Shown here: positions 1,011 through 17,299 of the stretch, one piece after another | How the letters are laid out: every line of letters starts with the position of its first letter | Numbering within the stretch: position 1 is the first letter of the stretch | Assembly: GCF_035615495.1 (NCBI RefSeq) | Contig: NZ_JAJENU010000642.1 | Span: 1-32,000, forward strand | Direction of reading: 5' to 3' | Length of the DNA stretch: 32,000 nucleotides | Source: Lyngbya sp. CCY1209 | GTDB lineage: Bacteria; Cyanobacteriota; Cyanobacteriia; Cyanobacteriales; Microcoleaceae | Notes under the pieces: generated by a model | What the model was told of the DNA's origin: nothing | The model's database searches: none | Seen by the model: only the letters and a program-made list of their open reading frames with translations | Translations under genes and position numbers: made by a program

Positions 1011-4000
1011 TTATCTCATATTTTGGTCAAATTTTTCGCTTTTTTCCCAACCATTTGAAGACTTGACCGTGAGCGGGTCTGCGGAGACCGACGGGCCGGG
1101 GGCGGAATTCGGTGCGCCCTCCCCGGGGGGGGAGGTGGGCAGTTCGAGCCAAAATTGACTCCCCACGTCCGGCTGCGACTCGACCCCGCAGCGCCCGCCC
1201 ATGCGCTCGATCCCGCGTTTGACGATCGCCAACCCGATCCCCGTGCCGGGGTAGGATTCCACGCCGTGGAGGCGCTCGAACACCCGGAAGATGCGATCGT
1301 GGTACTGGGGGTCGATGCCGATGCCGTTGTCTCCCACCCACAACCGCGCCCAGCCGTCGCTTTGGGTCGCCCAGATCGAAACCGTCGGCCGGACGTCGGG
1401 GGCAACGAACTTGGCGGCGTTGGCGACCAAATTCGCGATCGCCTGGTAGAGAATGCGGTAGTTCCCGTAGACGACGGGCAGATCGGGGGCAATTTTGAGT
1501 TGCACCCCCGCGTCACTCAGCTCCAAATCCAGGGTGTCCCGGATCTCCTCCAACACACCGTCGAGGGCCACCGGGTTCAGGTGGATCTCGGCCCGCCCCA
1601 GGCGGCTGTAGGCCAACAGATCTTGGATCAGGGTGTCCATGTGGGTAGCCGCGGCCATGATCCGGTGGGTGTACTCCCGGGCCATGTCGTCCGCCAGTTG
1701 GCTGCCGTAATCCTCCCACAGCGCCTGAGTCAGGCCTTGGATCGCCCGCAGGGGGGCGCGGAGGTCGTGGGAAACCGAATAGGAAAAGGATTCGAGTTCC
1801 CGGTTGCTCTTCTGGAGTTGTCGCGTCCGCACCCGCACCCGCTCTTCAAGGTGGGCGTTGAGTTGCCGGAGTTCCCGCTCCGCCTCCCGGCGGGCGATGG
1901 CGGACGCCAACAAATTCGCCACGGACTGCAGGAAGTTGACGTCGGAGTGCTCGAAGTGGCGTCGGTGGCGGGTGTGAACCCCCAAAACGCCGAACGGACG
2001 GTCGTCGGCCCCCTCGATCGCCACGCTGATGCCGCTGACGACCCCGTGATCTTTCAACAGCTCCGGGCCGGAAAACCGGGTTTCCGAGTCCAGCGATTCG
2101 ACGACGACCGGTTCGCGGCTCAGGAGGGTGTAACCCGCCTGGGAATCCCGGTCAGCCGCGACGACCGCCCGCCCCACCAAGCCTTCAGCCCAACCCACCC
2201 CCGCCCTCAACAGCAGGCCGTCTCCCCCGGGGATTCGTTGCAGGATTTTGCTGTATTCCACGCCGAGGCTCTCGGCGACTTCTGCGGCCGTCTCGTCAAA
2301 CAATTGGGAGAGCTCCAAGCCCGAGAGAGCCTTCTGGGACAGGAGGGCGACATCGGCCTGTTGGCGGAGTTGGGCGGCGAGGTTGAGTTCCGCGTTTTTC
2401 CGTTGCGTGATCTCCTCGGTGACGCCGACGACCCGCAGGACTTCCCCGGCCGTGTTGCGGACGAAGGAGGTGCGGACGCGCACCCAGATCTCGGAGCCGT
2501 CCGGCCGGCAGACGCGATATTCCTCTTCAAAGGGGGCCCCGGCGATCGCCCGCTCCAAAGCCGTTCCGACGCGATCGCGGTCCTCGGGGTGGACGGCTTC
2601 AAACCAACTGTCGGGGCGGTCGTAGAGGCTCTGGCAACTGCGCCCCCACAGCTCCTCGTAGGCGGGGCTGACATAGAGGAGCCGGCCGTAGTCGGGGGTG
2701 AAACTGAAGAAAATTTCCCGGATGTGTTCGGCGAACTGCCGGAATTTTTCCTCGGACTCTTTCAGGTCCCGGTGACGCCGTTCGAGTTCTTCCCGGGTCC
2801 GTTTGAGATCGGAAATGTCCCGGACGACGGCAATAAAGTGGTTGGGTTCCCCGGTGGGGTGGCGGCGCAGGGAACCGACAAGGGAGACCCAAACGGAGGA
2901 ACCATCTTTGCGGATGTAGCGCTTTTCCATCGCATAACTCTCGACCTGACCGGCTATCAGTTGTCGTACCCGTTCCAAATCCTCGGAGAGATCCTCGGGA
3001 TGGGTGATCGACTGAAAGGTTTTTTGCAGTAATTCTTCCCGGGTGTAGCCGACGATATCGCACAATTTTTGATTCACCCGCAGCCAACTGCCGTCAAGTC
3101 CGACGTGGGCGATGCCCACCGCCGCCTGTTCAAAGGTGGCGCGGAACAGTTCTTCCGACTCCCGCAGGGCGGTTTCAGCCCGCCGGCGATCGGCGATTTC
3201 CCGCCGCAACCGGTCGTTGCTCGTTTCCAGTTGCCGGGTGCGCTCCTCGATGCGGGCTTCGAGTTGGGCGTTGAACTGCCGGATTTGTTCTTCGAGGCGC
3301 TTGCGATCGCTGATATCCCGCCCCTCGGGGATGAGGAAAATGGTTTTTCCGTCGCCGTCCAAAATGGGGCGCAGGGAAAAGTCGATGGTGGCCGTCGCAT
3401 CACCCCGCCCCAGAACGTCAACTTCGTAGCGGACTGGCTCCCCCCGCAGTGCCCCGGCGATCGCCTCCCGCAGTTGTGCCCGGTTCTCGGCCGACCCCCG
3501 CCACCAGGGGGCTTCCCAGAAGGGCTTGCCGATGGCATCTTTCGCCTGCACCCCTGCGAAGTCGAGGGCGGTGCGGTTGGCTTCCAGGAGGGTGCCGTCG
3601 AGGTCTAGCAGCCCGACGAACTGAAAGGATTGGTTGAAGATGGCCCGGTAGCGCCGTTCCGATTGCAGCAGGGAAGTTTGCGCCTCTTCGCGGCAGGCGT
3701 CGATGCGGTTCAAACTGCGGCCGTTCCACCACAGGACGGCCGCGAAGACGAGGATGCCCAGAATGGTGCGGAGGGCGGTCAAGTTTTCGATGCCGACGGG
3801 GGAGTAAACTGCGATCGCCAACATCAACAATCCCAGCAGGATCGGGATGGCGACCGTCACCGGCAGCAGGCGTCGGATCATCATGCCCCCGGCGTAGGGG
3901 CTGCTGACTTCCGCCATCCACCCCCGGTCCGGGCGGACACCCAAGATGCTCAGGGAGAGCAGCAGCAGGGCGACGGCGGTCTGGATGTCCATCGGGTTGG

Positions 4001-4562
4001 GGGAGCCGACGTTGTAAAAGGGGGCGAAGTGGTAGAGGTGGCCGACGAGGGCCAAAATTGAGATCAGCAGGGCCAGCAGGCCGCAGAACTGGGCGGCGGC
4101 GTTGCGGCCCCTCACCGACAGCAGCACGCCGCCGCCGAGGGTGATCGCGCCGCCGGCGGTGTTGGGGGCGATCGGCCAATTGACGGCCGCGAGTCCACCG
4201 CCGGCGAAGAAATCCAGCAGGCCGACCGCCCCGATCAGCACGGCGGTCGCGCCACCGCCCCAAATCAACGCCCGGATCGGGGGGGGCGGGCTGATGCCCC
4301 GCAGGTGGTGGCGCTGCCACAGGTCGAGGGCGACCCCCGACCCGATGGCAGCCAGGGCGATGTAGCCCCGGATGGTGAGCCAGTGGGGGAGGGTGGGGGT
4401 TCCCGTCCACAGGTTCGCCGCCCATCCCAGCAACCCGACCGCTGCGATCGCGATCGCAGCCCACCGGCTCACTCGCGAAAACTGTTGGATTAACTCGACT
4501 TCCGACACCGGATCGGGTTGGGTGACGGCCGAGGTCGGACGGTTCAAGTGTCTTTCCCCCAA
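1011..4562 (-). CDS. Membrane-anchored multi-sensor histidine kinase (multi-pass N-terminus, 3 PAS-like modules, GAF, HisKA, HATPase)
   Basis: 1183-aa ORF. The first ~290 aa are hydrophobic multi-pass. PAS-like blocks are separated by a coiled coil (RKRLEEQIRQFNAQLEARIEERTRQLE). A GAF-like block follows. Kinase motifs are H-box FSYSVSHDLRAPLRAI, N-box NLVANAAKF, G1 DNGIGID and G2 GTGIGLAIV. The codon at 4562 is TTG and no in-frame ATG precedes the membrane region, so the start is uncertain. Confidence 0.9.
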   Translation of the reverse strand: MGERHLNRPTSAVTQPDPVSEVELIQQFSRVSRWAAIAIAAVGLLGWAANLWTGTPTLPHWLTIRGYIALAAIGSGVALDLWQRHHLRGISPPPPIRALIWGGGATAVLIGAVGLLDFFAGGGLAAVNWPIAPNTAGGAITLGGGVLLSVRGRNAAAQFCGLLALLISILALVGHLYHFAPFYNVGSPNPMDIQTAVALLLLSLSILGVRPDRGWMAEVSSPYAGGMMIRRLLPVTVAIPILLGLLMLAIAVYSPVGIENLTALRTILGILVFAAVLWWNGRSLNRIDACREEAQTSLLQSERRYRAIFNQSFQFVGLLDLDGTLLEANRTALDFAGVQAKDAIGKPFWEAPWWRGSAENRAQLREAIAGALRGEPVRYEVDVLGRGDATATIDFSLRPILDGDGKTIFLIPEGRDISDRKRLEEQIRQFNAQLEARIEERTRQLETSNDRLRREIADRRRAETALRESEELFRATFEQAAVGIAHVGLDGSWLRVNQKLCDIVGYTREELLQKTFQSITHPEDLSEDLERVRQLIAGQVESYAMEKRYIRKDGSSVWVSLVGSLRRHPTGEPNHFIAVVRDISDLKRTREELERRHRDLKESEEKFRQFAEHIREIFFSFTPDYGRLLYVSPAYEELWGRSCQSLYDRPDSWFEAVHPEDRDRVGTALERAIAGAPFEEEYRVCRPDGSEIWVRVRTSFVRNTAGEVLRVVGVTEEITQRKNAELNLAAQLRQQADVALLSQKALSGLELSQLFDETAAEVAESLGVEYSKILQRIPGGDGLLLRAGVGWAEGLVGRAVVAADRDSQAGYTLLSREPVVVESLDSETRFSGPELLKDHGVVSGISVAIEGADDRPFGVLGVHTRHRRHFEHSDVNFLQSVANLLASAIARREAERELRQLNAHLEERVRVRTRQLQKSNRELESFSYSVSHDLRAPLRAIQGLTQALWEDYGSQLADDMAREYTHRIMAAATHMDTLIQDLLAYSRLGRAEIHLNPVALDGVLEEIRDTLDLELSDAGVQLKIAPDLPVVYGNYRILYQAIANLVANAAKFVAPDVRPTVSIWATQSDGWARLWVGDNGIGIDPQYHDRIFRVFERLHGVESYPGTGIGLAIVKRGIERMGGRCGVESQPDVGSQFWLELPTSPPGEGAPNSAPGPSVSADPLTVKSSNGWEKSEKFDQNMR

Positions 4563-5277: not shown

Positions 5278-7674
5278 TTAAACCGGAAAATCGACGGTAA
5301 ATGTCGTCCAGCAGTCCTGACTCGTCACCCGAATTTTGCCGTCGAGTTGTTCGACCAATTTTTCCACCAGCGCCAATCCCAAACCGGTCCCCCCCTGCTT
5401 CCAGGGGTCGGCGTTTTGCACCCGGTAGAACTTGTCAAAAATGCGGGGCAGTTCTTTTTCCGGGATTTCGGCCTGGTTGGCAATTTTAAACCGCAGGCGA
5501 TCGCCGGAGCGGGCGGTCTTTTGAGGCGCTTCGGAAATCCCGCCGGCGCCGCGTTCAACTCCCAGGTGAATTTCCCCGCCGTCGGGGGTGTACTTGCAGG
5601 CATTGTTCAACAATTCGGCGATGATCCGCTCCAGGTTGCCGGTGTTGGTGCGGACGGGCGGCAAGTCGGGGGGACAGTCCACGCTCAACACCTGCTGGCG
5701 TTCCTGAGCTCGGGAATAGAAGGGTTGGGTGATGCGGGGAATCCAGTTGGAAAGGTTCAATACTTCCAGGCTGATGGGGGCGGTGGAGGCCTCCAATTTT
5801 TGCAAGTCCAACAGGTCGTTGATCAGGTTGGTTTCCCGGGAACATTCCGCCTCCAAAATGCTGAGATACCGCTCGCCCCGCTCCGGCGTCGGTGCCAATT
5901 TCAGCATATGGATCGCCATCTTCATGTTGGCCAAAGGCGTCCGCAGTTCGTGGGAGACGGTGCTGAGAAAGTCGTCTTTGAGGATGTTCAACTGCTGGAG
6001 TTCTTGGACTTTGTGTTGCAGTTCGGCGGTGCGGTCGAGCACCTGTTTTTCCAAGTCGGTGTTGAGGGCTTGAACTTGGTGGTAGAGTTGGGCTTGGTAG
6101 ATGGCGATCGCCAGTTGGGTCGCCAGTTGTTGCAGGAGGTTGGTTTCGGCGGGCAGCCAGTGGCGGGATTTGTGACACTGCTGCACCTCGATCACGCCCC
6201 ACAGTTGCCCGTCCTGGAGGATGGGGACTCCTAAATAGGATTCGATCTGTTCTTGGTGCAGGCGCACCCGTTCCGCCGGGGGCAGGTCGCCGGCGCGGAT
6301 GTCCGGGACGGTGTAGATGTAGTCCCGCTCGAAGGCCTGCAGGTAGTGGGCGATCGCGGTTTGGGTGAGCTGGGGGTGCGAGAGGGAACCGCATCCGGAA
6401 GCGGCCGACTCGGCCACCAGTTGTCCGGTTTCGCCGTTGACGACGTGGTAAATCACGACGCGGTCTGCCTCCAGGAGCGATCGCACCTCGGCCACGGTGG
6501 TATTCAGAATGTCTTCCAAATTCAGGGATTGGTGGATCTGCAGGGAAATTTTGGCCAGCAGCCGCTCCCGCTGCAACTGTTCGTGCAGTTGGGCCGTCCG
6601 TTCGGCCACCTGCTTCTCCAACTGCACGTTGCGGCTCCTGAGCAGTTCCATCTTCTCCGCCTGGAGCTGGTAGACGGACTGCTGCAGTTGTTTCACCACC
6701 CGGTACATCTCCGTGGGGTCGAGCATCCGCAGCAGGCTCATCTGGGTGACGATCCCCCGCAGTTCCCCCCCCTCGCCGCACACCAGCAGCCGCTGCACCT
6801 GGCGGGCCTGCATCTCCTGGTGCGCCACCCACAGGGAATCCTGGGCCGTCAGGGAAAAGCGGGGTTTCCCCATGATCGTCGCCGCCGGGGTGCGGCTGAG
6901 GTCTAACTCCAAAAACTGAGCCAGGAGGATATCCTGGGCCGAGACGATCCCCAGGGGCTTCACTTTCTTTTTCCGGGACGCCTCGTGGATGACCACGCAG
7001 CTCGTCTGGTGGGTCGCCATCCGCTGGGCCAAATTCAGGGCGGAGGTGTTGGCCGGCGCCCTGAGTACGTCGGCGATCATCTCGTCGGCTACCCGCCGGG
7101 TTCTCAGGATGTTGGAGGGTTGCAGGACTTGCCGAATTCGCTCCGGCGTGATCGCCCCCACCAAATGGCCGTCGCGGTTGAGGACGGGGAGGTGCAGGAT
7201 CTGGTGCTGGCGGAACATCGACAGGGCGGTAAAAATATCCTGATCTTGGGATTCGGTCAGTTGGTGGACGGCCTCGGACATGACTTCCCCGATGCGGATT
7301 TTGTGCAGGGGGGCCTCCCGGGGGTTGTCCAAAATGCCCGTGGCGATCAGTTGCACCAGATCCCGCTCGGTGAAGATGCCCAACAGGTTCGCCCCCTCCG
7401 GCGGGGGAGACAGAATGTCCGGGCCGCCGGGGGCCGACTTGTCCACTACCAGCACGCAGGTGGCCCGCAGCCCTTCGGCCGGCCGCACCCCTGCCGTCGC
7501 CCCCTCCGAGGTTCCGGGGTCGTCCGTTGTGTTTTGGGGCATCGCGGAGCGGTTGAGCAACTGACCCATCAGGGCGATCGCGTCGGCCAGGGAGGTGTCC
7601 GGCGTCACGGTGAGGGGGTAGCGATCGACCGCCTGTTCGAGGGCGGAGGAGTAGTGGGGCGCTGAGTAGGGCAT
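5278..7674 (-). CDS. Sensor histidine kinase with N-terminal CBS pairs and a GAF domain
   Basis: 798 aa with an ATG start. The first ~300 aa are CBS-like repeats (GIFTERDLV, VGAITPERI, LGIVSAQDIL, RGIVTQMSLLRML). A coiled coil and a GAF-like block follow. Kinase motifs are H-box FLSTVSHELRTPLANM, N-box ELLNNACKYTP and G2 GGTGLGLALVEKLV. Confidence 0.9.
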   Translation of the reverse strand: MPYSAPHYSSALEQAVDRYPLTVTPDTSLADAIALMGQLLNRSAMPQNTTDDPGTSEGATAGVRPAEGLRATCVLVVDKSAPGGPDILSPPPEGANLLGIFTERDLVQLIATGILDNPREAPLHKIRIGEVMSEAVHQLTESQDQDIFTALSMFRQHQILHLPVLNRDGHLVGAITPERIRQVLQPSNILRTRRVADEMIADVLRAPANTSALNLAQRMATHQTSCVVIHEASRKKKVKPLGIVSAQDILLAQFLELDLSRTPAATIMGKPRFSLTAQDSLWVAHQEMQARQVQRLLVCGEGGELRGIVTQMSLLRMLDPTEMYRVVKQLQQSVYQLQAEKMELLRSRNVQLEKQVAERTAQLHEQLQRERLLAKISLQIHQSLNLEDILNTTVAEVRSLLEADRVVIYHVVNGETGQLVAESAASGCGSLSHPQLTQTAIAHYLQAFERDYIYTVPDIRAGDLPPAERVRLHQEQIESYLGVPILQDGQLWGVIEVQQCHKSRHWLPAETNLLQQLATQLAIAIYQAQLYHQVQALNTDLEKQVLDRTAELQHKVQELQQLNILKDDFLSTVSHELRTPLANMKMAIHMLKLAPTPERGERYLSILEAECSRETNLINDLLDLQKLEASTAPISLEVLNLSNWIPRITQPFYSRAQERQQVLSVDCPPDLPPVRTNTGNLERIIAELLNNACKYTPDGGEIHLGVERGAGGISEAPQKTARSGDRLRFKIANQAEIPEKELPRIFDKFYRVQNADPWKQGGTGLGLALVEKLVEQLDGKIRVTSQDCWTTFTVDFPV

Positions 7675-7767
7675 AACCGATGGAGGCGTTGGCCGGTGCG
7701 GGTCGCACCCGAGAACCGTTTGCTATTTTTCCTGTATGGTAATCCTAACACTGGGGGGTGAAGGGAA

Positions 7768-7796
7768 TGACCCAATTTTTTGATTTTCTCTATAAT
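7768..7796 (+). promoter_or_regulatory. Candidate sigma70-type promoter for the HEAT-repeat gene
   Basis: A perfect TATAAT lies at 7791-7796, with TGACCC 17 nt upstream (7768-7773). It sits about 40 nt upstream of ATG 7835. Sequence pattern only. Confidence 0.3.
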
Positions 7797-7834
7797 GTGG
7801 GGGAATTCAAAATGTAAAGTTTTAATAAGTTGAG

Positions 7835-8527
7835 ATGAGCGCGACCTTTCCCCTCGACCGAATTGCCGCCCAATTGGAGAGTCAAAATACCCGTGATCGG
7901 ATGTTGGCCCTGGCATCCCTGCGGCAGGTCTCCCCGGAAGATGCAGTCCCCCTGATCAAAAAAGTCCTCGACGACCAGAGTTTGCAAATCCGCTCGATGG
8001 CGGTTTTCGCCCTGGGAATCAAACCCACTGCCGAATGTTACGGGATTTTGGTAAAATTGCTCGAAAGCGATCCGGACTACGGCATCCGCGCCGACGCGGC
8101 CGGGGCCCTGGGCTACCTGGGCGATCGCCGCGCCGTCGAACCCCTGATGCGGGCGTTTTACGAGGATACCGATTGGCTGGTGCGCTTCAGCGCGGCGGTG
8201 TCTCTGGGCAATTTGAAAGATCTCCGCGCCCACGAGGTGCTGATTTCGGCCCTCAACAGCGACGAGGTGATCCTCCAACAGGCTGCGATCGCGGCGTTGG
8301 GAGAAATTCGCGATCTCGAGGCGATCGACCGGATCTTGGATTTCGCCCAGTCGGAGGATTGGCTGGTACGGCAGCGACTCGCGGAAGCCCTCGGAAATCT
8401 CCCGACTTCCAAGAGTGCGGCGGCCCTCAAATACCTGGCGAAAGACGGCCACCCGCAGGTATCGGAAGCTGCCAAAATTGCCCTCGATCGCCTCCGAGAA
8501 TTGGATGAAAAACTGTTGGAATCATGA
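7835..8527 (+). CDS. HEAT-repeat protein (PBS-lyase/NblB-like HEAT repeats)
   Basis: 230 aa. Repeated units of the type xxVRxxAAxALGxLxDxRAVxxL occur: IRSMAVFALG, GIRADAAGALGYLGDRRAVEPL, LVRFSAAVSLGNLKDLRAHEVL, ILQQAAIAALGEIRDLEAIDRIL, LVRQRLAEALGNL. Confidence 0.75.
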   Translation: MSATFPLDRIAAQLESQNTRDRMLALASLRQVSPEDAVPLIKKVLDDQSLQIRSMAVFALGIKPTAECYGILVKLLESDPDYGIRADAAGALGYLGDRRAVEPLMRAFYEDTDWLVRFSAAVSLGNLKDLRAHEVLISALNSDEVILQQAAIAALGEIRDLEAIDRILDFAQSEDWLVRQRLAEALGNLPTSKSAAALKYLAKDGHPQVSEAAKIALDRLRELDEKLLES

Positions 8528-9045
8528 ACGAAATTTTCAAAGATTGGGGACTGACCTGGGAGGGTTTGAAAACCGGAAAGCGGGGGGAGTATTTGGTGGC
8601 GATCCAGGGACTCCTGCTGGTCGGATTCGTCCTGCTTCCCGTCTATCCGATCCCCGGATTGGTGGCCCTGAAATCGTCCCCGTGGATGTATTTAATCTGG
8701 GGAATTTCCATTCTATTTGACGCGATCGCCGTCTTTCTCATGGTCAAGGGACTGATGGATTTGGGCGAAAACCTCACCCCGCTCCCCTACCCCAAAGACA
8801 CCGGAAATTTGATTCAATCTGGCGTCTACAACGTCGTCCGCCACCCCCTTTACAGCGGCTTAATCTTTGTCACCTTCGGCTGGACGCTCTTTTTTCTCAG
8901 CCTCTCCCATTTGGCAATAACTGCGATTCTGTTTTTATTTTTGGACATCAAATCTCGGCGGGAGGAACAATGGCTGATCGACAAATATCCCGAATATTCG
9001 GAGTACAAACGGCGGGTCAAAAAACTGATTCCGCTGGTTTACTGA
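8524..9045 (+). CDS. Membrane methyltransferase of the ICMT/PEMT family
   Basis: 173 aa with about 4 hydrophobic helices. The C-terminal motif GVYNVVRHPLYSGLIFVTFGW...REEQWLIDKYPEYSEYKRRV is typical of isoprenylcysteine carboxyl / phospholipid methyltransferase-like proteins. Its ATG overlaps the upstream TGA (ATGA at 8524-8527). Confidence 0.7.
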   Translation: MNEIFKDWGLTWEGLKTGKRGEYLVAIQGLLLVGFVLLPVYPIPGLVALKSSPWMYLIWGISILFDAIAVFLMVKGLMDLGENLTPLPYPKDTGNLIQSGVYNVVRHPLYSGLIFVTFGWTLFFLSLSHLAITAILFLFLDIKSRREEQWLIDKYPEYSEYKRRVKKLIPLVY

Positions 9046-9128
9046 ATCGCCCCCCCATTCCCTCGAAAGGCGTTTCTGGAAGCGATCGGGCGATCGCATC
9101 GATTTGGATCTCGACAACCTTGAAAAAA

Positions 9129-10250
9129 ATGATTCGATTTGCAAGTCTGACGGTGGCTTGCTCCTGGCTCTTGGGTTGCGGCGCAGCCGACGGCAAAATG
9201 CAAACGAATTTAGCCGCCTTTTTATCGGCAGTCGGAGACGAAACCGACCCCTCCGATTCTCGCTACAAATATTCCGGCAGAATCGATTTTAGCGACAGTG
9301 CCAACCCCGTCATTTTCTACGGGGGTTCGATCATCAACGTCAAATTTAAAGGCACCAGCCTGAAAGCCAAATTTTCCGACAACTCCAACAACGATACGAA
9401 AGTCGGATTTATCATCGACGGCGGCGATCTGATTATCAAAGAAGTCGATAAAAATGCCTCAAAACAAGAAATAACCATCGCCACCGGACTCTCCGACGGC
9501 ACGCACACCTTGGAAATTATCAAACTGGAAGGGCCGGGAAATGGCAACCGGGGTTTGGTGTTTCACGGGTTGGTACTCGACGAAGAAAAAGGCATTCTCG
9601 CCGGCGAGAAACCGGCTTTAAAAATAGAAGTGTTCGGCGATTCCGTCACCGAAGGGGCCAGTGCAGGTTGTGCCGAAGGCGACGGCGATTGTGGCGATAA
9701 CAATGCCTATTTGAGTTTCGCCAATACGTTGGCGAGAGATTTGAATGCGGACATTCACAATAACGGCATCGCCGGTTTGGCTGTGCGGAGCGGAACCGGC
9801 TATTTTGAGAGCGGCAATACGGGACTCGATGCCACCTACGACAAACTGAGCCCTTCGTCGGAGGGCGGCTTTTCTCGGACGGACTGGGATTTCGGCCGCT
9901 ACACCCCCGATTTGGTGATTATGGCGATGGGTGTCAACGACGAATATGGCAACGGTTTGGACGACGTGCCGACGTGGAAAAATGCCTACAAAGCGATCGC
10001 CCGCGATATTTACGAAAAATATGGAAATGACAAAAACCGCCCGTTCATTTTTGCCCCGGCTCCCATATGGGCGAGAAATGCGGACAAATACGCGGAAGAA
10101 GTGGCGAACGAACTCAAACAGGAGGGTTACAACACCTGGTTTTACAACTATTCTTTTGAAGCGCAAAACGGACACCCCGATCGCGTCGAGTCCAAAAAAA
10201 TGGCGTCAGAATTGAAACAATTCATCGAAACCAACAATATTTTGAATTAA
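9129..10250 (+). CDS. Lipoprotein SGNH/GDSL-type hydrolase (CE2-like: N-terminal beta-sandwich plus esterase)
   Basis: The ORF track starts at 8970, inside the upstream gene. The in-frame ATG 9129 gives MIRFASLTVACSWLLGC, a signal peptide with lipobox LLGC. Block I is VFGDSVTEGAS and the C-terminal block is NGHPD. Confidence 0.75.
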   Translation: MIRFASLTVACSWLLGCGAADGKMQTNLAAFLSAVGDETDPSDSRYKYSGRIDFSDSANPVIFYGGSIINVKFKGTSLKAKFSDNSNNDTKVGFIIDGGDLIIKEVDKNASKQEITIATGLSDGTHTLEIIKLEGPGNGNRGLVFHGLVLDEEKGILAGEKPALKIEVFGDSVTEGASAGCAEGDGDCGDNNAYLSFANTLARDLNADIHNNGIAGLAVRSGTGYFESGNTGLDATYDKLSPSSEGGFSRTDWDFGRYTPDLVIMAMGVNDEYGNGLDDVPTWKNAYKAIARDIYEKYGNDKNRPFIFAPAPIWARNADKYAEEVANELKQEGYNTWFYNYSFEAQNGHPDRVESKKMASELKQFIETNNILN

Positions 10251-10264
10251 ACAACCATCAAGTC

Positions 10265-10285
10265 GCACAGGCAGGATGCCTGTGC
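10265..10285. terminator. Perfect 9-bp hairpin between convergent genes
   Basis: GCACAGGCA-gga-TGCCTGTGC lies between the SGNH hydrolase stop (10250) and the SBP stop (10324). No clear U-tract. Confidence 0.45.
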
Positions 10286-10323
10286 TACCGATTCGATACC
10301 GTAGGGTCAAAAAAAGATCCGAT

Positions 10324-11994
10324 TTACTCCGGATTTACTTTCTCCAGGGGCCAGAACGGAAACTGCTGGTTAACTTGCAGGCGGATTCCCCCGATATTAT
10401 TTTGGGCGAAGATGTAGGTTTTATCTTGCCAGAGGGGGATGAAAGGAACGTCGCTGGCGAGGCTTTCTTGAATTTCCAAAAAGATCGCCCGACGCTTTTG
10501 GGGGTCTTGTTCAGTCCGCTGCTGGTCGATCAATTCGTTGACGCGATCGCTATAATAAAACGATCCCTGATATTGACTCGCCCCCTCTTCACATCCCGTT
10601 TCTTCCGAACCTTTCGCGCAGCCCAAAAAGGGCTGGATGTAATTGTCCGCATCCAAGAAATCGGCGTACCAATCCAACATGAACGTCGGATAAATTCCCT
10701 TGTCCAAATTTTGATAGGCGGTGGTGGTTTCCACGCTCTTGGGTTCGAGTTGCAACGCGCCGCCCAAATTTTCCTGGGCCAGGGCTTTCAGCGTCGCCGC
10801 CAGTGAGGCTCGCTTGTTGGAATTGGCGCCGTACCACAGTTCCACCACGGCGGGATTTTCCGGGGTATATCCGGCCTCGGCGAGGAGTTGTTTGGCTTGG
10901 TCAAAATTGCCGTCGCCGTAGGTTTGTTGGAAGACGGGGCTGTAACTTTCAAAGGTGGTAGGGATGAGGCTGTAGAGGGGTTCGGCCTGTCCCCGCAAGA
11001 TGCGATTATTGATTAAATTGCGGTCGATCAAAGCCGCGATCGCCCGCCGGACTTCCGGTTGATTCAGGGGTTCGGAATTGACGTTCAACACCATATAATT
11101 GACCGTATTTCCGTCCGCCGCGATCGCTTGCCAGTTCCCCGCTTCGGCCCCTTCCAATAAACTCGCGATCTGGTCGGGTTCCAAGGAAACGTAAGCCACA
11201 TCCACCGCATTGCTGCGAAACGAATTGAACAGGTTGGCGGAACTGGTAAATCGCTGCAAATCGATCCCCTCGTTGGCGGGTTTTTCCCCCCAATAATTCT
11301 CGAACGGGTCAAGGCGAATCACGTCCACGCCGTATTCCGCCAACACATAGGGTCCGGTGCCCACAAACATATCGGGTTGGAAGGGTCCGTCGATGGCGTA
11401 GGCGGCGGGAGACACCGCACAGGTGCCCGAAAAGGCCAGCAGGGACGGAAACGCCGCGAAGGGCCGTTTGAGGGTGATGGTGAGTTCGTATTCCCCCGTC
11501 GCCTCAATTGTGTCTATGGTGTCCGCCAGCAGGGACGAGGGGGGCCCGCCTTTTTGGATGAACCGGTCCAGGGAAAATTTCATCGCCTCGGCGTCGAAGG
11601 GGGTCCCGTCGTGGAACACCACCCCTTCCCGCAGCGGGATGGTATAGGTGAGGTTGTCGTCGCCGACGGTGGGAAAATCCGTCGCCAGTTCCGGTTGGAG
11701 TTCCGTGGTGCCCAGTTTGTAGGCGTAGAGGCGATCGCCGAGGTTGTAGAGGAGGGTTCCGGAGATCACCTCGTAGGCGTCCGCCGGGTCGAGGGTGCGG
11801 AGGTTCTGGGTCGTCCCGACGACAATGCGATCGGTGTCCGAAGTGGCGGGGGTTTGGCCCTCGGGTCCGGTTCCGCAGGCGATCGCAACGAAGGCGACCA
11901 AACAAAATAAAGCCAGAAATCGGGCGATTGCGGGAATTCGGCGGCGGCGATGCCATCCCGGAGAGGGCGATCGCATCGGGTGTGTTTTCTGCAT
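10324..11994 (-). CDS. ABC transporter substrate-binding lipoprotein, family 5 (peptide/nickel/opine type)
   Basis: 556 aa with an ATG start. The signal peptide with lipobox is FVAIAC. Family-5 style blocks include TLDPADAY...LYNLGDRLY, FHDGTPFDAEAMKFSLDR, GTGPYVL and VPFIPLWQ. No permease or ATPase genes are adjacent. Confidence 0.85.
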   Translation of the reverse strand: MQKTHPMRSPSPGWHRRRRIPAIARFLALFCLVAFVAIACGTGPEGQTPATSDTDRIVVGTTQNLRTLDPADAYEVISGTLLYNLGDRLYAYKLGTTELQPELATDFPTVGDDNLTYTIPLREGVVFHDGTPFDAEAMKFSLDRFIQKGGPPSSLLADTIDTIEATGEYELTITLKRPFAAFPSLLAFSGTCAVSPAAYAIDGPFQPDMFVGTGPYVLAEYGVDVIRLDPFENYWGEKPANEGIDLQRFTSSANLFNSFRSNAVDVAYVSLEPDQIASLLEGAEAGNWQAIAADGNTVNYMVLNVNSEPLNQPEVRRAIAALIDRNLINNRILRGQAEPLYSLIPTTFESYSPVFQQTYGDGNFDQAKQLLAEAGYTPENPAVVELWYGANSNKRASLAATLKALAQENLGGALQLEPKSVETTTAYQNLDKGIYPTFMLDWYADFLDADNYIQPFLGCAKGSEETGCEEGASQYQGSFYYSDRVNELIDQQRTEQDPQKRRAIFLEIQESLASDVPFIPLWQDKTYIFAQNNIGGIRLQVNQQFPFWPLEKVNPE

Positions 11995-12300: not shown

Positions 12301-14397
12301 ATGTTATATGGGGCCCGATCACCAATGGAACAACCAGACAATGCCAGCAGTGAAAGTACCTTAGCGGCGATCGTCTTTACGGATGTTGAGTCGTTTACCC
12401 CCAAAATGGCGGCCGATGAGAAACATACCCTCGGTTTGCTAGACCGGGACTTCAGAATGATGCGGCGATCCTGTCAGCATCACGAGGGAAAAACGATCAA
12501 ATCCCTGGGGGACGGATTGCTGATGTACTTCAACCGTGCCGAACAGGCCGTTACCTGTGCGACGGAGATCCAAACCGCGATCGCCAAAACCGCCGCCGAC
12601 CTCCCCGAACGGGATATTTTAGTTCACCGCATCGGAATCCACCTGGGGGATATTTACTTAGTTGATGACGGCCGGGACGTGATGGGAAATGGGGTCAACA
12701 TCGCTGCCCGACTGCAATCCCTCGCACCCCCGGGAGGAGTCTGCCTTTCCGCCACCGTTTACGAGGTCGTCAAAAATAGCCTCACCCCCAAACCCACCTA
12801 TATCGGACTGCGAAAACTCAAAGGCATTTCCGAACCCGTCCCCCTCTACCATATCGCCTCTTCCCTGACCCGCGATCGCTCCCGGAAACGGGTTTTTATT
12901 TCCTATTCCGCCAAAGATCCCGACACCTCCCTCGCCCAAAAATTCTTTGAAGCCTTGTCGGAGGCGGGACAGGCCGCATTTATGGCCGGCGCCAGCCTAA
13001 AATTGGGGGAAGATTGGCCGTACCGGATCGAAACCGAATTGCAACAATGCGATTATTTACTATTGCTATTATCGGAGCGATCGGCGACCAGCGAAATGGT
13101 GACGGAGGAAGTGCGGCAGGTCAAAAAACTGCAAGAAAAACGCGACGGAAAACCGATCATCCTACCCATTCGCGTCCAATTTCCCTTGACTTCTCCCCTC
13201 AACTACAACCTGCGGGGTTATTTGGATCGGATTCATCAGCGGGAGTGGAATTCGGACGCGGACACGCCCAAACTGATCGGAGAAGTCATCAATTTAATTC
13301 AAACCGGAAAGGTTCCGGAAGCGTCCAATATTTCCCAACCTAAAGCCTGGGGCGATCGCACATCCCGTCCCCAACCGGCGGCGGTGCCCGAACTTCCGGA
13401 AGGGCAAATGGATGTCGCTTCTATCTTTTATGTAGAACGTCCCCCCGCCGAATCTCGATGTTATGAAACCATCCTCCAATCGGGGGCACTCATTCGGATC
13501 AAAGCCCCCCGCCAGATGGGAAAAACCTCTCTGATGGCGCGAGTTTTGCACCACGCCCAAAAGAAACACGGATATTGTTCCGTCCCCCTCAGCTTTCAGT
13601 TGGCAGACGGGAAAATTTTTGCGGATTTGGACAAATTTTTGCGCTGGTTTTGCGCCAGCGTGGGGCGGAGGTTGCGCCTCCCCAATCAGTTGAATGACTA
13701 CTGGGATGAAATTTTCGGCAGCAAAGATAACAGTACGGTTTACTTTGAGGAATATCTGCTCGAAAATATCGACAGTCCGCTCGTTTTGGGACTCGATGAA
13801 GTCGATCGCGTCTTTGAACACCCGGAAATTGCGGGAGACTTTTTGGGACTGTTGCGGGCGTGGCATGAACAAGCCAAAAATAACGACATTTGGAAAAAAT
13901 TGCGCCTCGTGGTCGTGCATTCCACGGAAGTTTATGTGCCGATGGATATCAACCAATCGCCCTTCAATGTGGGACTGCCCATTGAATTATCGGAATTGAC
14001 CACGGAACAGGTACAAGAATTGGTCGAATTGCACGGATTGAAATTCACCGCCGACGAATTGGAATCTCTGATGCAAATTGTCGGCGGACATCCCTATTTA
14101 ATTCGGGTGGCACTCTACTATATTTCCCGTCAAGATACGACGATTTCAGAATTTTTAAAAACCGCCCCCACGGAAGCCGGATATTACGGCGATCACCTGC
14201 GGGGACACCTGTGGAAGTTGCAACAATATCCCGAGTTGGCGGCGGCGATGGAACAGGTTGTCAACAGTGACGAACCCGTGCGGTTGGAGTCGATAGTGGC
14301 ATTTAAGCTGCACAGTTTGGGGCTGGTGACGCTGTGCGGAAATGATGCCGGGGTGCGATCGGATTTGTATCGGCTTTATTTCCGCGATCGCCTTTAG
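12301..14397 (+). CDS. Class III adenylate/guanylate-type cyclase - TIR - AAA-like P-loop ATPase fusion protein
   Basis: 698 aa (an alternative ATG at 12325 gives MEQPDN...).
- Cyclase, aa ~22-185: [28 protein letters not shown].
- TIR, aa ~197-335: [10 protein letters not shown]...[36 protein letters not shown].
- ATPase, aa ~375-698: FYVERPP...[12 protein letters not shown] (Walker A), LVLGLDEVD (Walker B). Confidence 0.85.
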
Positions 14398-14401
14398 TTT
14401 T

Positions 14402-14600
14402 CCCTCACCCCCGGCTCCTCTCCCAATCTTGGGCGAGGGGAGGAAAACTCAGCCCTCACCCCCGGCCCCTCTCCCAATTTTGGGCGAGGGGAGAAGAATT
14501 CAGCCCTCACCCCCGGCCCCTCTCCCAATCTTGGGCGAGGGGAGAAGAATTCAGCCCTCACCCCCGGCCCCTCTCCCAATCTTGGGCGAGGGGAGGAAAA
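14402..14600. repeat. Four head-to-tail copies of a 51-bp GC-rich hairpin-containing unit
   Basis: Copies start at 14402, 14453, 14504 and 14555. The consensus is CCCTCACCCCCGGCCCCTCTCCCAATCTTGGGCGAGGGGAGAAGAATTCAG. Each holds the inverted repeat CCCCTCTCCC/GGGCGAGGGG (9 of 10 pairs, 6-nt loop). The array fills most of the 238-nt spacer between the two ATPase genes. Confidence 0.9.
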
Positions 14601-14635
14601 ACAAATATTATCAAAAATTACTTTCTCGAATCACT

Positions 14636-17299
14636 ATGAATCATCAAAACCCGATTTATCAAGTGGGTGGAAGCCTCCCCGCCGATGCCCCCACCTACGT
14701 CAAACGCGAAGCCGACGACGAGTTATATGATGCCCTCAAACGGGGGGAATTCTGCTACGTCCTCAACTCACGCCAGATGGGAAAATCCAGCTTGCGGGTG
14801 CAGACGATGCGGCGATTGCAAGCTGAGGGTGTGGCTTGTGTCGCGATCGATATTACCCAAATTGGCAGTCACAATATCACCCCCGATCAGTGGTATTTGG
14901 GGATGATAAGAACCGTCGCCAGTACCCTCTCGACTTCCCTCGGCAAACGGGCAAAACTGGCGGCTTGGTGGCGCGATCGCGAGTTGATTTCTCCGGTACA
15001 ACGACTGGGCGAATTTATCGAAGATATATTGCTAAAAGAAATTGAGAATAATATCGTTATTTTCATCGATGAAATTGATAGTGTCATCAGCCTCAATTTT
15101 GATGTCGATGACTTTTTCGCCTTGATTCGCGCCAGCTACAACAAACGCGCCGATCGCCACCATTATAAACGCCTCAGCTTTACTCTCTGCGGTGTCGCCA
15201 CTCCGTCAGATTTGATCGCGGACAAAACTCGAACGCCCTTCAATATCGGAAAAGCGATCGCCCTCGGCGGTTTCCGGATGCCCGCGGCGTTGCCCCTCGC
15301 CCGAGGGTTGGAATCCCGCTGTGAAAACCCGGAAGCGGTCTTAACTGAAATCCTAAATTGGACGAACGGACAGCCGTTTTTGACTCAAAAAATTTGCCGA
15401 TTAATTTTAGAATATTCCGGCCAAATTATTGCCGGGGAAGAAGCTCAGGTTGTTGCCGATATTATTTCCCAACAAATCATCAAAAATTGGGAGGCGAACG
15501 ACGAACCGGAACACTTCAAAACGATCCGCGATCGCCTCCTCCGCAATCCCCAACGAGCCGGTCGGCTGCTGGGACTGTATCAGCGGGTCTTGAATGCGAT
15601 CGACGGAGGGATTGCCGCCGATGATAGTCCCGAACAAATGGAACTGCGCTTGAGTGGATTGGTCGTAAAAACTGGCGGTCAATTGAAAGTTGCAAACCCC
15701 ACTTACAAAGGAATTTTTAATCAAGATTGGGTGACGCAGGAACTCGCCCAACTGCGACCCTATGCCGAAGCTTTCGAGGCTTGGGAGAAGTCCGGGCGTC
15801 AGGATGAGTCACGATTGTTGAAGGGGGAGGCGTTAACTGAGGCGAAAGCCTGGGCGAGAGGAAAAAGTTTGAGCGACAAAGATTATCAGTTTTTGGCGGC
15901 GAGCGAACAACTCGACAAACAGGAAATTCAGGCGGCGTTGGAAACGAAATTGGCGGCGGAACAGGAAGCAAAGGAAATTTTAACGAAAGCAAAAAGACGG
16001 GCTTCTCTGCTGTCTTGGATTGCGATCGGAATCTTGGGTTTGTCTTTCGGGATGGCGGCTTTTTATTTGAGACGAACCTACACCAATCTCAACTTAGCTG
16101 AAATTCGCCTCACCAGTGCTGGAGCAAAGGAATTGCACCTCTCCGGAGGCCAGGAACTCAGTTCAATTGTCACCGCACTGCAAGCCAGCCACAACTTGAA
16201 AAAATTACCAGTTTCCTTGTGGTCAAAAGACGATACCCGGGGGAAAGTGATCTCAATCCTTCATGCAGTCCTGGATGGTTCCCGAGAATACAATCGTATC
16301 GAGGGGCATCGGAGTCTGGTCAACGGCGTGGCCTTCAGCCCGGACGGGAAAACCATCGCTTCGGCCAGTAATGACAACACGGTGAAATTGTGGAAGCGCG
16401 ACGGCACCCTCCTCCAAACCCTCGATGGGCATCGGGATTATGTCAACGGCGTGGCCTTCAGCCCGGACGGGGAAACCATCGCTTCGGCCAGTGCAGACAA
16501 CACGGTGAAGTTGTGGACAGTCGATTTAGATGACCTGATGGCGCAAGCGTGTCAGGTGGTAGGGGACTACTTGAAAAATAACCCCAATGTCACCGATGAG
16601 GAACGCCGTTACTGTGGGGTGGACGCTTCGGCAACGGCTCGGTTTTTGCAAGGCGAACAGTTGGCAGCGGAGGCTCAAATTGATGAGGCGGTTTCTCGCT
16701 TTCAACAGGCTGTCAAGCTCGACCCGAACTTTCGTTCAAGTTCGGCTCAGATTTTGGTCAAAAGAGGAGAGTTTTTGGCTCGGGATGAGGAGAGAGTTAA
16801 TCGAGCCATTTTGGCTTTTCAGAACGCTGTAAAATTGGATTCAGATTTAAAGTTTGATCCTGATAATAAAGCCCGTGCGATCGCTTCAATTTTCGAGGGG
16901 AGAGATTTGGCAGAAGCGGGTAAAATCGATGAGGCGATCGCAAAATTTAAGGATGCTCAAAAATTAGATGCTGATGTCAAAATTTCGGCTTGGTCTTGGA
17001 ATGTGCTCTGTCGGTACGGCGGGCTGAATCGACAAGCTGAGAAGGTGATGTTCGCCTGCGATAAAGCGGTCGAAATCGAACCGAAAAATGGGCGGATTCG
17101 TGAGATTCGGGGTTTGGCGATGGCTTTGACGGGTGATTTTGATGGGGCGATTGAGGATTTGGAGATGGCGTACAGTGAATGGGAGGAATGGATGGGTGAT
17201 GAAAATGAAAAGGCAAAACGAAAAGCTTGGATCGATACTCTTAAAAAGGGTGAAAGTCCGTTTACCGATGAGGTATTAGAACAATTGAAAAATCAGTAA
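14636..17299 (+). CDS. AAA-like P-loop ATPase - coiled coil - TM helix - 2 WD40 repeats - TPR-like C-terminal protein
   Basis: The ORF track starts at 14342, inside the upstream gene. I prefer ATG 14636 ([27 protein letters not shown]...), which matches the usual N-terminus of this ATPase family.
- Walker A is SRQMGKSSL and Walker B is [10 protein letters not shown].
- The TM helix [21 protein letters not shown] lies at about 16006-16068.
- WD40 units are [25 protein letters not shown] x2 (16305-16520).
- TPR-like helices span about 16640-17200. Confidence 0.8.

Follow-up and report, generated by a model that had tools for sequence, protein, structure and literature searches.

A two-gene locus in Lyngbya sp. 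CCY1209

We analyzed a stretch of 32,000 nt of Lyngbya sp. CCY1209 (contig NZ_JAJENU010000642.1; the whole stretch is hereafter called the window) with a focus on a locus at positions 12301-17299. An earlier note, made from the sequence alone, had described this locus as two genes on the same strand, here called A and B, separated by a 238-nt repeat spacer, and had proposed that they form a split conflict system resembling the receptors that combine nucleotide binding with leucine-rich repeats (NLRs). The coordinates of the open reading frames (ORFs) and a search with TRF agree with this layout. Gene A (12301-14397, +), identified by its ORF and by Pfam, carries the putative effector domains, gene B (14636-17299, +), identified in the same way, carries the putative sensor domains, and the spacer covers positions 14398-14635. 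Both encode an AAA_35 module, and we call the two forms of this module, and the genes that carry them, A-type and B-type. The public records of the two proteins are WP_324707169.1 (A) and WP_324707170.1 (B), which are 100% identical to P0001 and P0121 of our protein set and are both titled just "AAA-like domain-containing protein". This is a general trait: every public AAA_35 record that we examined has a generic domain name, mostly this one, and none names a system or a function.

The ORF of gene A encodes 698 aa, as the earlier note had it, but the start was probably misplaced there: the true start is likely M9 (ATG at 12325), giving a protein of 690 aa, because the NCBI record and the homologs begin at this residue. 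The note had also divided the protein into a cyclase, a TIR domain and an ATPase, a reading upheld by Pfam, by matches in the PDB, and by structure prediction with AlphaFold2 (AF2) followed by Foldseek. The first part is a class III nucleotidyl cyclase domain (aa ~22-185; 12364-12855, +), recognized by Pfam (Guanylate_cyc at aa 22-159, 3.6e-13), by its PDB matches and by alignment. In an alignment of 23 sequences, the metal aspartates D28 and D71 are near-invariant, N133 and R137 are invariant, and the substrate pair K67/D126 is present in A. Hence, the residues that define class III cyclases, i.e., the pair of metal aspartates, the transition-state Asn/Arg and the substrate residues, are all found in this protein. 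The best match in the PDB is 3mr7 (1.9e-27), followed by Rv1900c (1ybt) and Ma1120 (4wp9), and all three are adenylyl cyclases. By the rules of class III cyclases, we take K67/D126 to be the pair that specifies purines (ATP), unlike the pyrimidine cyclases of Pycsar. The cyclase of A is probably of the adenylyl type. In the orthologs of the clade of Argonema, Aerosakkonema and Floridanema (P0035, P0037, P0038, P0049), K67 and D126 are jointly replaced (by A/S/E and Q/S/K, respectively), which hints at a switch of nucleotide specificity among the orthologs of A.

The second part of A is a TIR domain (aa ~198-335; 12892-13305, +), matched by the Pfam profile TIR_2 at aa 198-309 (1.5e-16). The residues E269/E270 lie at the catalytic position and align to the EE of the "WCLEEL" of Roq1 in PDB alignments that are weak (E 0.15-1). 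In the 23-sequence alignment E269 is invariant and E270 is conserved in at least 90% of the sequences, and the glutamate of NADase-type TIR domains (the "WxxxE" position of alphaC) is therefore present in A. Since the catalytic residues of the cyclase and the glutamate of the TIR domain are conserved, both enzymes of A look active. The third part is the AAA_35 NTPase module (13393-14385, +), which Pfam places at aa 365-695 (3.5e-150) with 499.8 bits for a gathering score of 27 bits. The cyclase-TIR-AAA_35 architecture is common to more than 80 clusters with 53-72% identity to A.

Gene B encodes 887 aa from the ATG at 14636. A longer ORF of 985 aa, starting at 14342, was considered for B and rejected: its additional part is a read-through of the spacer repeat, and the homologs begin at the motif YQVGGSLP. 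The order of parts given in the earlier note (ATPase, transmembrane helix, two WD40 repeats, TPR-like tail) matches what Pfam and Kyte-Doolittle hydropathy reveal. The AAA_35 module comes first (14669-15721, +; Pfam at aa 12-362, 2.2e-31, 109.3 bits for the same gathering score of 27 bits), and it is 50-64% identical to those encoded downstream of other A-type genes. It is followed by a charged, coiled-coil-like helical region read from the sequence (aa ~380-455; 15773-16000, +), which is 39-59% identical in many B-type homologs, and by a single predicted transmembrane helix (aa 458-478; 16007-16069, +; Kyte-Doolittle 1.99) with the basic N-terminal flank KAKRRAS. Then come two WD40 repeats, a contracted array that Pfam detects in two stretches (aa ~549-630; 16280-16525, +; 3.1e-25), and an alpha-helical C-terminal tail (aa ~660-887; 16613-17296, +). 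This tail resembles TPR, with weak matches to the Pfam profiles TPR_11 and TPR_2 and with matches to the MamA/PrsT TPR profiles of NCBIfam, and it has homologs at two other loci of our set (L006 and L008).

The AAA_35 modules of A and B

The two ATPases had been called paralogous in the earlier note, and its quoted Walker A and Walker B strings are indeed in the proteins. The modules of A and B are 25% identical (E 5e-12) and match each other with a probability of 99.7% in a profile-profile comparison. In A, the motifs are RQMGKT (Walker A), LGLDEVD (Walker B), SPFNVG and GGHPYL, the latter containing the GxP signature; in B they are RQMGKS, IFIDEID, TPFNIG and NGQPFL. They are conserved in 47 of the 47 paired homologs of each type, and the Walker A reads RQMGKTS in 44 of the 47 of A-type. 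The lysine of the Walker A, a DExD Walker B, an arginine 17 residues further on, the PFN-G motif and GxP are invariant in both subfamilies, and because of this both partners look like working NTPases.

The AF2 model of the AAA_35 module, made from an alignment of 58 A-type and B-type sequences, has a predicted local distance difference test (pLDDT) of 90.3 and a predicted template modeling score (pTM) of 0.84. The best match of this model in Foldseek is the archaeal protein PAB2304 (2qen, 1.3e-9, TM-score ~0.6). Other matches include Avs3 (8dgc, 1.4e-7), SSO1545 (2fna, 1.7e-7, TM-score ~0.6), ORC2/Cdc6, Avs4 (8dgf, 4.2e-6), Dark, RPP1 and CED-4. A search of the PDB by sequence with the ATPase module returned nothing except the P-loop stretch of RecA. 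As modeled, AAA_35 is a NOD-like module (NOD being the domain for nucleotide binding and oligomerization), in which a nucleotide-binding domain is followed by a helical and a winged-helix domain, and its predicted fold is like that of the signal transduction ATPases with numerous domains (STAND) and of ORC proteins. The traits shared with STAND proteins and NLRs are the intact Walker A and B motifs and the succession of nucleotide-binding domain, helical domain with GxP, and winged helix. The classical tripartite arrangement on a single chain is absent, since A ends at the NTPase and B lacks an N-terminal effector.

A-type and B-type genes are neighbors across cyanobacteria

With an alignment of A orthologs as the query, we searched a single genome of each species and kept 80 loci, all of which are cyanobacterial. 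The ORFs of these loci were classed by BLAST against separate A and B domains. The modules split cleanly: scores are ~350-530 bits within a type and 50-86 bits between types. A B-type gene lies downstream on the same strand in 60 of the 74 A-type genes for which sufficient downstream DNA was available; 38 of these 60 genes are within 300 bp, and 12 overlap the A-type gene or start within 3 bp of it. When an equal length of sequence was surveyed on both sides, the 5 kb downstream of 58 of 81 A-type genes held a B-type gene on the same strand. For comparison, a B-type gene was found downstream on the opposite strand in none, upstream on the same strand in 3 and upstream on the opposite strand in 4 of the 81 (binomial p ~1e-27). 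The adjacency on which the earlier note had staked its proposal is thus found in other cyanobacteria.

The two modules also diverge together. The distance matrices of the A modules and of the partner B modules are correlated (Mantel r 0.58; none of 2000 permutations reached this value), and in genomes with two pairs each A shares its nearest neighbors with its own B (e.g., at L065, where these are L071, L062 and L077). The mirrored neighbors and the correlation of the matrices suggest that the pairs have been inherited and duplicated as units. In addition, some genomes encode natural tandem fusions, with a B-type module followed by one of A-type, as at L051 (1315-3453, -) and L078 (11302-13257, +). 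They form a family of proteins of ~710-760 aa (P0241-P0317), with more than 40 clusters at 48-87% identity and 98-100% coverage, in Anabaena, Nostoc, Nodularia, Gloeothece and other hosts, and are thus common among Nostocales and beyond. The proteins of this family are "core-only": they carry neither effector nor sensor and keep both P-loops. Such fusions provide Rosetta-stone evidence of physical cooperation. Because the modules co-diverge and B-A fusions are widespread, we regard it as very likely that A and B work together as a functional pair. That they contact each other through their NTPase modules is reasonably likely on these genomic grounds.

The pair was also found in the same order, at 37-38% identity, in an IMG/VR contig classed as viral (L090, IMGVR_UViG_3300031236_000894, 7544-11124), and A-B pairs are also carried on cyanobacterial plasmids.

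Effectors on A-type and sensors on B-type proteins

The earlier note had pointed out that effector domains are present only on A and sensor repeats only on B. We wished to see this at the scale of the family. A HMMER search of the sequence library with the A module retrieved 7405 cluster representatives (at 50% identity), of which 2021 at E<=1e-30. The A-type module is C-terminal in ~90% of the best 150 representatives. Among 82 A-type representatives that were scanned for N-terminal domains, we found TIR in 21, protein kinase in 12, CHAT in 11, cyclase in 4, LuxR helix-turn-helix in 4, caspase in 3, trypsin in 3, EAD4 in 2, and EAD1, EAD8, VMAP-M1 and NACHT in one each. The B-type proteins have the opposite layout: the module comes first, and the C-terminal part is a WD40 array in 22 of 50 proteins and TPR, FHA, Amidase_3 or another domain in others. 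Hence, in these sequences the division between effector-bearing A and sensor-bearing B holds family-wide and is a rule of the family.

A plasmid of Nostoc sp. ATCC 53789 (pNsp_e; L091, 6019-12911) encodes in succession a Trypco1 protein, a Trypsin-TIR-AAA_35 protein and a protein with AAA_35, a transmembrane helix, twelve WD40 repeats and Amidase_3. The last of these is named just "N-acetylmuramoyl-L-alanine amidase" in RefSeq. Its amidase domain suggests a half, sensor or effector, that faces the cell wall. Kaur et al. (2020, PMC7159879) described conflict systems in multicellular bacteria for which the pairing of Trypco with trypsin is a signature, and the N-terminal domains of the A-type proteins are the effector and adaptor toolkit of those systems.

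Other arrangements show that the AAA_35 family, judged by its domain combinations, is a hub for architectures well beyond the TIR/WD40 pair. Among the proteins P0340-P0358, P0322 and P0274, B-type modules are fused to ATPase domains of histidine kinases (~730 aa), AAA_35 modules are combined with NACHT (PF05729, ~1000 aa), and double modules stand behind a CHASE2 sensor (1241 aa). In Oscillatoria nigro-viridis PCC 7112 (L088, 897-11552), a gene for a 440-aa protein with HTH_VMAP-M9 and AAA_35 forms an array with a Uma2 gene and two B-type genes; one of these is broken by an ISAZ013-type transposase and the second is intact. This locus shows that arrays with several sensors exist and that they decay through the insertion of insertion sequences.

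Membrane topology of the B-type proteins

A hydrophobic helix is found at the same place (~aa 455-490) in 99 of 120 homologs of B, and the sequence of the helix itself is variable. In the 84 homologs with a single transmembrane helix, the number of lysines and arginines averages 5.2 on the N-terminal side and 2.6 on the C-terminal side, and the N-terminal side is the richer one in 76 of the 84. Since these flanks fit the positive-inside rule, the NTPase is predicted to be cytoplasmic and the repeats to be outside, and the repeat half of B is probably extracytoplasmic (in the periplasm or the lumen). The B-type partner on pNsp_e supports this topology: its transmembrane helix is at aa 456, ahead of the twelve WD40 repeats, and a peptidoglycan hydrolase domain (Amidase_3) forms the C-terminus. 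A transmembrane helix is absent from the partner with FHA and from one of the WD40 partners, which indicates that cytosolic B-type variants exist too. Overall, we regard the odds that B senses a cue outside the cytoplasm as evenly balanced.

Genomic context

The locus is flanked by genes for PAS/GAF histidine kinases, a HEAT protein, a methyltransferase, a GDSL esterase, an ABC solute-binding protein, Tab2, a GAF protein, an SBF transporter and a rhodanese. Upstream lie two large sensor kinases on the opposite strand, one with multiple PAS domains, GAF, HisKA and HATPase (1011-4562, -) and one with CBS, GAF, HisKA and HATPase (5278-7674, -). Both are kept in a sister strain (see below) and are ordinary signaling genes outside the A-B pair. 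The earlier note had remarked that the locus is visibly richer in AT than its flanks. This stands only weakly: the locus has a GC content of 51.4%, its 5-kb flanks of 54.6-54.8% and the whole window of 56.4%, and ordinary neighbors such as the genes of the GDSL esterase (50.1%) and the SBF transporter (47.4%) are as low. We therefore rejected a compositional island, as the dip is real yet small and common to ordinary neighboring genes.

At other loci the neighbors of the pair vary from genome to genome. Among 131 flanking ORFs of these loci, the only matches to defense genes were scattered (as raw counts, HNH/PtuB 4, mad 2, and one each of DpdF, MTase I, HEC-01 and PsyrT). The pair is self-contained. 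Its contexts vary and include plasmids, and they are not demonstrably those of defense islands. The A-type genes may also have an alternative partner set: at L082/L083 (1-13601) an A ortholog with 68% identity is followed by a 474-aa Ser/Thr kinase in place of a B-type gene, and ahead of it are genes for a 3308-aa CHAT protein and for DUF928.

Comparison with known systems

Searches of the locus against PADLOC-DB 2.0 and NCBIfam yielded no named system, only domain-level matches to PycC and TIR profiles far below the cut-offs, and the claim that no named system has this combination of domains stands in these databases. In its layout, the pair resembles systems of animals and plants. In NAIP-NLRC4 and in plant pairs such as RGA5/RGA4 and RRS1/RPS4, two paralogous NTPases of the NOD type divide the work, with sensing repeats on one and a death or signaling domain on the other. 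The partners are genetically linked there, as they are here, and assembly of the executor is presumed to start from the sensor. In plant TIR-bearing NLRs the TIR domain is the proximity-activated output, as is proposed for A, and RPP1 is among the fold matches of AAA_35. There are also clear differences: the NTPases of A and B are AAA_35 and not NACHT or NB-ARC, and the sensor is probably anchored in the membrane with extracytoplasmic repeats, while the executor adds a cyclase. Moreover, the A-B pairs are bacterial, co-directional and often translationally coupled, and not head to head. We thus see the resemblance as a functional analogy suggested by genomics and not as membership.

The earlier note had compared the locus with Avs, in which effector, NTPase and sensor follow one another. 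The logic, the similar fold and the swapping of N-terminal effectors are indeed shared with Avs and bNACHT, both built on a STAND-type NTPase. The parallel does not extend to the place of sensing: Avs and bNACHT carry the three parts on one chain and sense phage proteins in the cytosol, whereas A-B is split over two NTPases and has a sensor that is predicted to be outside the cytoplasm. None of the Avs/NLR models of PADLOC was matched by A or B at E<=0.01.

Among bacteria, the nearest precedent in concept is given by the nSTAND2 systems, mobile two-gene operons in which both genes encode STAND proteins, with a predicted toroidal hetero-multimer and variable effectors on one of the two (Kaur et al. 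2021, PMC8195603). The A-B pair is similar in that it consists of two adjacent genes, each with a STAND-type NTPase module. We considered the possibility that AAA_35 is nSTAND2 and rejected it: a hidden Markov model (HMM) of nSTAND2, which we built from 9 published sequences (alignment from Kaur et al. 2021), gave a best E of 0.13 against 94 modules in hmmsearch, and hhalign gave probabilities of 1.0-1.5%, for a value of 99.7% between A and B. In nSTAND2, which is proteobacterial, the module on the effector protein is inactive, with an eroded P-loop, and the HEPN or GT4 effectors are C-terminal, after a winged helix-turn-helix and TPR (PMC8195603). In contrast, both modules of A-B keep the Walker A and B motifs, the effectors sit at the N-terminus, and the pair is found in cyanobacteria.

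The MoxR-vWA ternary systems (VMAP/iSTAND; PMC7159879) share the toolkit of the A-type proteins, as they combine trypsin/Trypco, caspase/CHAT, cyclic nucleotide (cNMP) cyclases, TIR and EADs with an NTPase-like core. Both groups are enriched in filamentous or multicellular bacteria, and A-type proteins again carry the domains EAD1/4/8 and VMAP-M1/M9. Neither MoxR nor vWA genes were found in the flanks of the locus in the window or among the top families of the 131 flanking ORFs, and A has as its partner an active paralog of its own NTPase, not a couple of chaperone and co-chaperone. With Pycsar and Thoeris, the pair has in common the use of a class III-type cyclase and of TIR as generators of nucleotide signals. 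The HMM matches are weak: PycC scored 27.5 bits (3.9e-7, partial), ThsB 19.9 bits (8e-5) and ThcB4 27.4 bits (1.4e-6, for a cut-off of 220). Unlike Pycsar, where the PycC score would have to be far higher, there is no cNMP-binding effector among the neighbors, and unlike Thoeris there is no ThsA-like (SIR2/SLOG) neighbor and the matches are limited to the TIR domain. Finally, the archaeal proteins PAB2304 and SSO1545 (2qen, 2fna) and ORC/Cdc6 have the same layout of nucleotide-binding, helical and winged-helix domains, and unlike the AAA_35 proteins A and B they lack fusions to effectors or sensors.

A proposed mechanism and its alternatives

We propose that A and B each form one half of a single NLR-like (STAND-type) conflict or cell-death module that is widespread in cyanobacteria, a reading to which we assign a probability of roughly 0.55. 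B would be the sensor, with its AAA_35 module in the cytoplasm, a helical stalk, a single membrane anchor, and WD40/TPR repeats most likely facing the periplasm or the lumen. A would be the soluble executor, with the paralogous AAA_35 module placed behind the cyclase and the TIR domain. The repeat region of B would read a cue, upon which the NTPase module of B would open or oligomerize in a nucleotide-dependent way. This module would then dock with the module of A and nucleate its assembly into a hetero-oligomer, with a logic similar to that of NAIP-NLRC4 or of the sensor/helper NLR pairs of plants. As a consequence, the N-terminal domains of A would cluster, and their proximity would activate both enzymes. 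Class III cyclases are active as dimers only, and TIR NADases need oligomers. The outcome may be the cleavage of NAD+ or a signal derived from ADP-ribose (ADPR), together with a burst of cNMP (cAMP), leading to growth arrest, cell death or alarm signaling.

A number of observations weigh against this proposal. Around one-fifth of the A-type genes lack a downstream B; behind the close orthologs P0005 and P0020 lie a kinase gene and a YbjN-like gene instead. The order is reversed in Roseofilum, with B before A, and the closest relative of B, in Limnoraphis, has no adjoining A gene. In the distance analysis the B of the window is not the mirror partner of its A, and it has two WD40 blades, too few for a propeller. 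In the AF2 model of the natural B-A fusion P0241, taken as a proxy for the heterodimer, the modules themselves are confident (pLDDT 82) but are not placed with confidence relative to each other (pTM 0.50), which speaks neither for nor against an interface. The flanks of the locus are housekeeping and signaling genes, no effector that binds cNMP or ADPR is encoded near it, and the 131 flanking ORFs of other loci include no conserved third gene and no family present more than 6 times. As for novelty, nSTAND2 (PMC8195603) is a precedent, so that a heteromeric STAND system of bacteria, split over two genes, is not an entirely new idea. No paper on the AAA_35 family and no published description of the AAA_35 pair were found in the literature that we searched, the coverage of which is incomplete.

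Fusions of cyclases and STAND modules are also found in ordinary signal transduction, such as the mycobacterial Rv0386-type cyclases, which is a further point to be set against a conflict role. The A-B pair could be a non-immune signaling pair, comparable to the cyclase-STAND-TPR regulators. In this case B would receive an environmental or developmental cue at the membrane, A would turn the signal into cAMP, and the TIR domain would act as an assembly scaffold only. The neighbors in the window (histidine kinases, GAF proteins and transporters), the lack of a demonstrable defense-island context and the wide use of cAMP by cyanobacteria fit such a role, as do the fusions of B-type modules to HATPase_c/HisKA, PAS and FHA and those of A-type modules to kinases and LuxR helix-turn-helix domains. 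Yet, the dominant N-termini of the A-type proteins are a conflict set, with TIR, CHAT/caspase, trypsin and EADs, and Trypco1 is linked to one of them. A mere scaffold is also at odds with the conservation of the catalytic glutamate of the TIR domain, and the varied contexts, the plasmids and the variation of repeats between strains are typical of fast-evolving conflict genes. We therefore regard an ordinary signaling pair as unlikely. A conflict or cell-death role of A-B appears somewhat probable.

The evidence for pairing also fits a scenario in which B restrains A. B would then be a guard that holds A inactive, in a manner akin to toxin-antitoxin systems, and A would fire once B is lost, cleaved or titrated. 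The overlapping stop and start codons of many pairs suggest stoichiometric co-expression, and some A-type genes have no B, so A can exist alone. This last observation cuts both ways, since under such a scenario the solo A genes would be toxic, yet they are maintained. The large and variable repeat arrays of B, with its intact Walker motifs, also fit a sensor of ligands better than a restraint, and we find the latter rather improbable.

That A and B are two independent NLR-like genes, clustered by tandem duplication and uncoupled, has some appeal in a large family (the 7405 cluster representatives) with many AAA_35 genes per cyanobacterial genome and arrays of B-type genes (L001, L072, L078), but it is largely refuted by the family-wide absence of sensors on A and of effectors on B, the strict asymmetry in order and strand with frequent overlap of reading frames, the co-divergence of the modules, the recurrent B-A fusions, and an identity of ~25% between A and B that excludes recent duplicates.

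The state of the copy in the window

A separate question, compatible with the proposed sensor-executor module, is whether the copy in the window is a working one. The locus is also present in a near-identical sister strain (L089, labeled Limnospira sp. metagenome-assembled genome), which keeps the same flanking genes. The B of this strain (L089, 10210-12993) has 3 WD40 blades for 2 in the window, the difference being an exact in-frame indel of 41 aa. Relatives of B have ~12-14 blades (~14 at L086), and the closest longer relatives, of 1334-1374 aa, have full arrays. The number of WD40 repeats thus appears to be changing by recombination. A propeller cannot be closed with 2-3 blades, so that in this B either sensing falls to the TPR-like tail or the copy is weakened.

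The spacer differs between the two strains as well. It contains a tandem repeat of 51 bp (14402-14601, no strand assigned), with 3.9 copies and 94% matches in TRF, in which each unit folds into a GC-rich hairpin; the arms CCCCTCTCCC/GGGCGAGGGG are present in every unit, in sequence and in the predicted fold. The unit has 4 matches in the window, for 0 expected, and is found nowhere else in it. There are ~4 copies in the window and 2 in the sister strain (L089, 10080-10180), and the repeat is missing from 88 other loci. A search with Rfam over the window, including the repeat, matched no family, and a scan of the locus for promoters and terminators found no promoter-like or terminator-like site on the + strand of the spacer, with counts at or below those expected from shuffled sequences. 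Most other genomes have A and B overlapping or separated by under 100 bp, and because of this the repeat is best described as a lineage-specific insertion.

The family may be real and this copy decaying, with a sensor collapsed to 2 blades and a locus that is non-functional in this strain. The insertion of the repeat between genes that overlap elsewhere is in line with such a decay, and so is the higher dN/dS of B (0.32) relative to A (0.18) in the comparison with the sister strain. On the other hand, these ratios are well under 1, with values of 0.155 and 0.07 for the flanking genes of the solute-binding protein and Tab2, and we counted 18.5 non-synonymous changes where ~57 would be expected under neutrality (our own estimate from site counts and synonymous changes). 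Judged by these rates, both A and B are under purifying selection. Both ORFs are intact in the two strains, the Walker motifs are intact, and the TPR-like tail, which could be a working sensor, has been kept. Hence, we hold a decaying copy to be quite unlikely.

Implications for cyanobacteria

The A-B pair is real, widespread and, apparently, an undescribed NLR-like paired system. The computational tests that the earlier note had named as decisive, on domain calls, named systems and synteny, came out in favor of its reading. It links the toolkit of the "multicellular" conflict systems (TIR, caspase, trypsin and EADs) to a new core. A bolder reading, which is tentative and on balance doubtful, is that these genes belong to a large unrecognized family of paired NLR-like receptors of cyanobacteria, in which the principle of sensor and helper was invented independently, with a cue from outside and an executor in the cytosol. 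The cue could then be the entry of a phage, damage to the peptidoglycan, or a signal from a neighboring cell in the shared periplasm of the filament. The executor would have TIR, cyclase, caspase/CHAT, trypsin or kinase outputs, and the pair in the window would emit two nucleotide signals together.

If the sensor repeats, including those of the peptidoglycan amidase fusion, are extracytoplasmic, this would open an outside-in route into NLR-type signaling. Avs and bNACHT have so far been single proteins that sense parts of phages in the cytosol, and the division of labor between sensor and executor NLRs has been regarded as a refinement of animals and plants. Should the A-B family work as proposed, this division would have arisen in bacteria too, from another family of NTPases.

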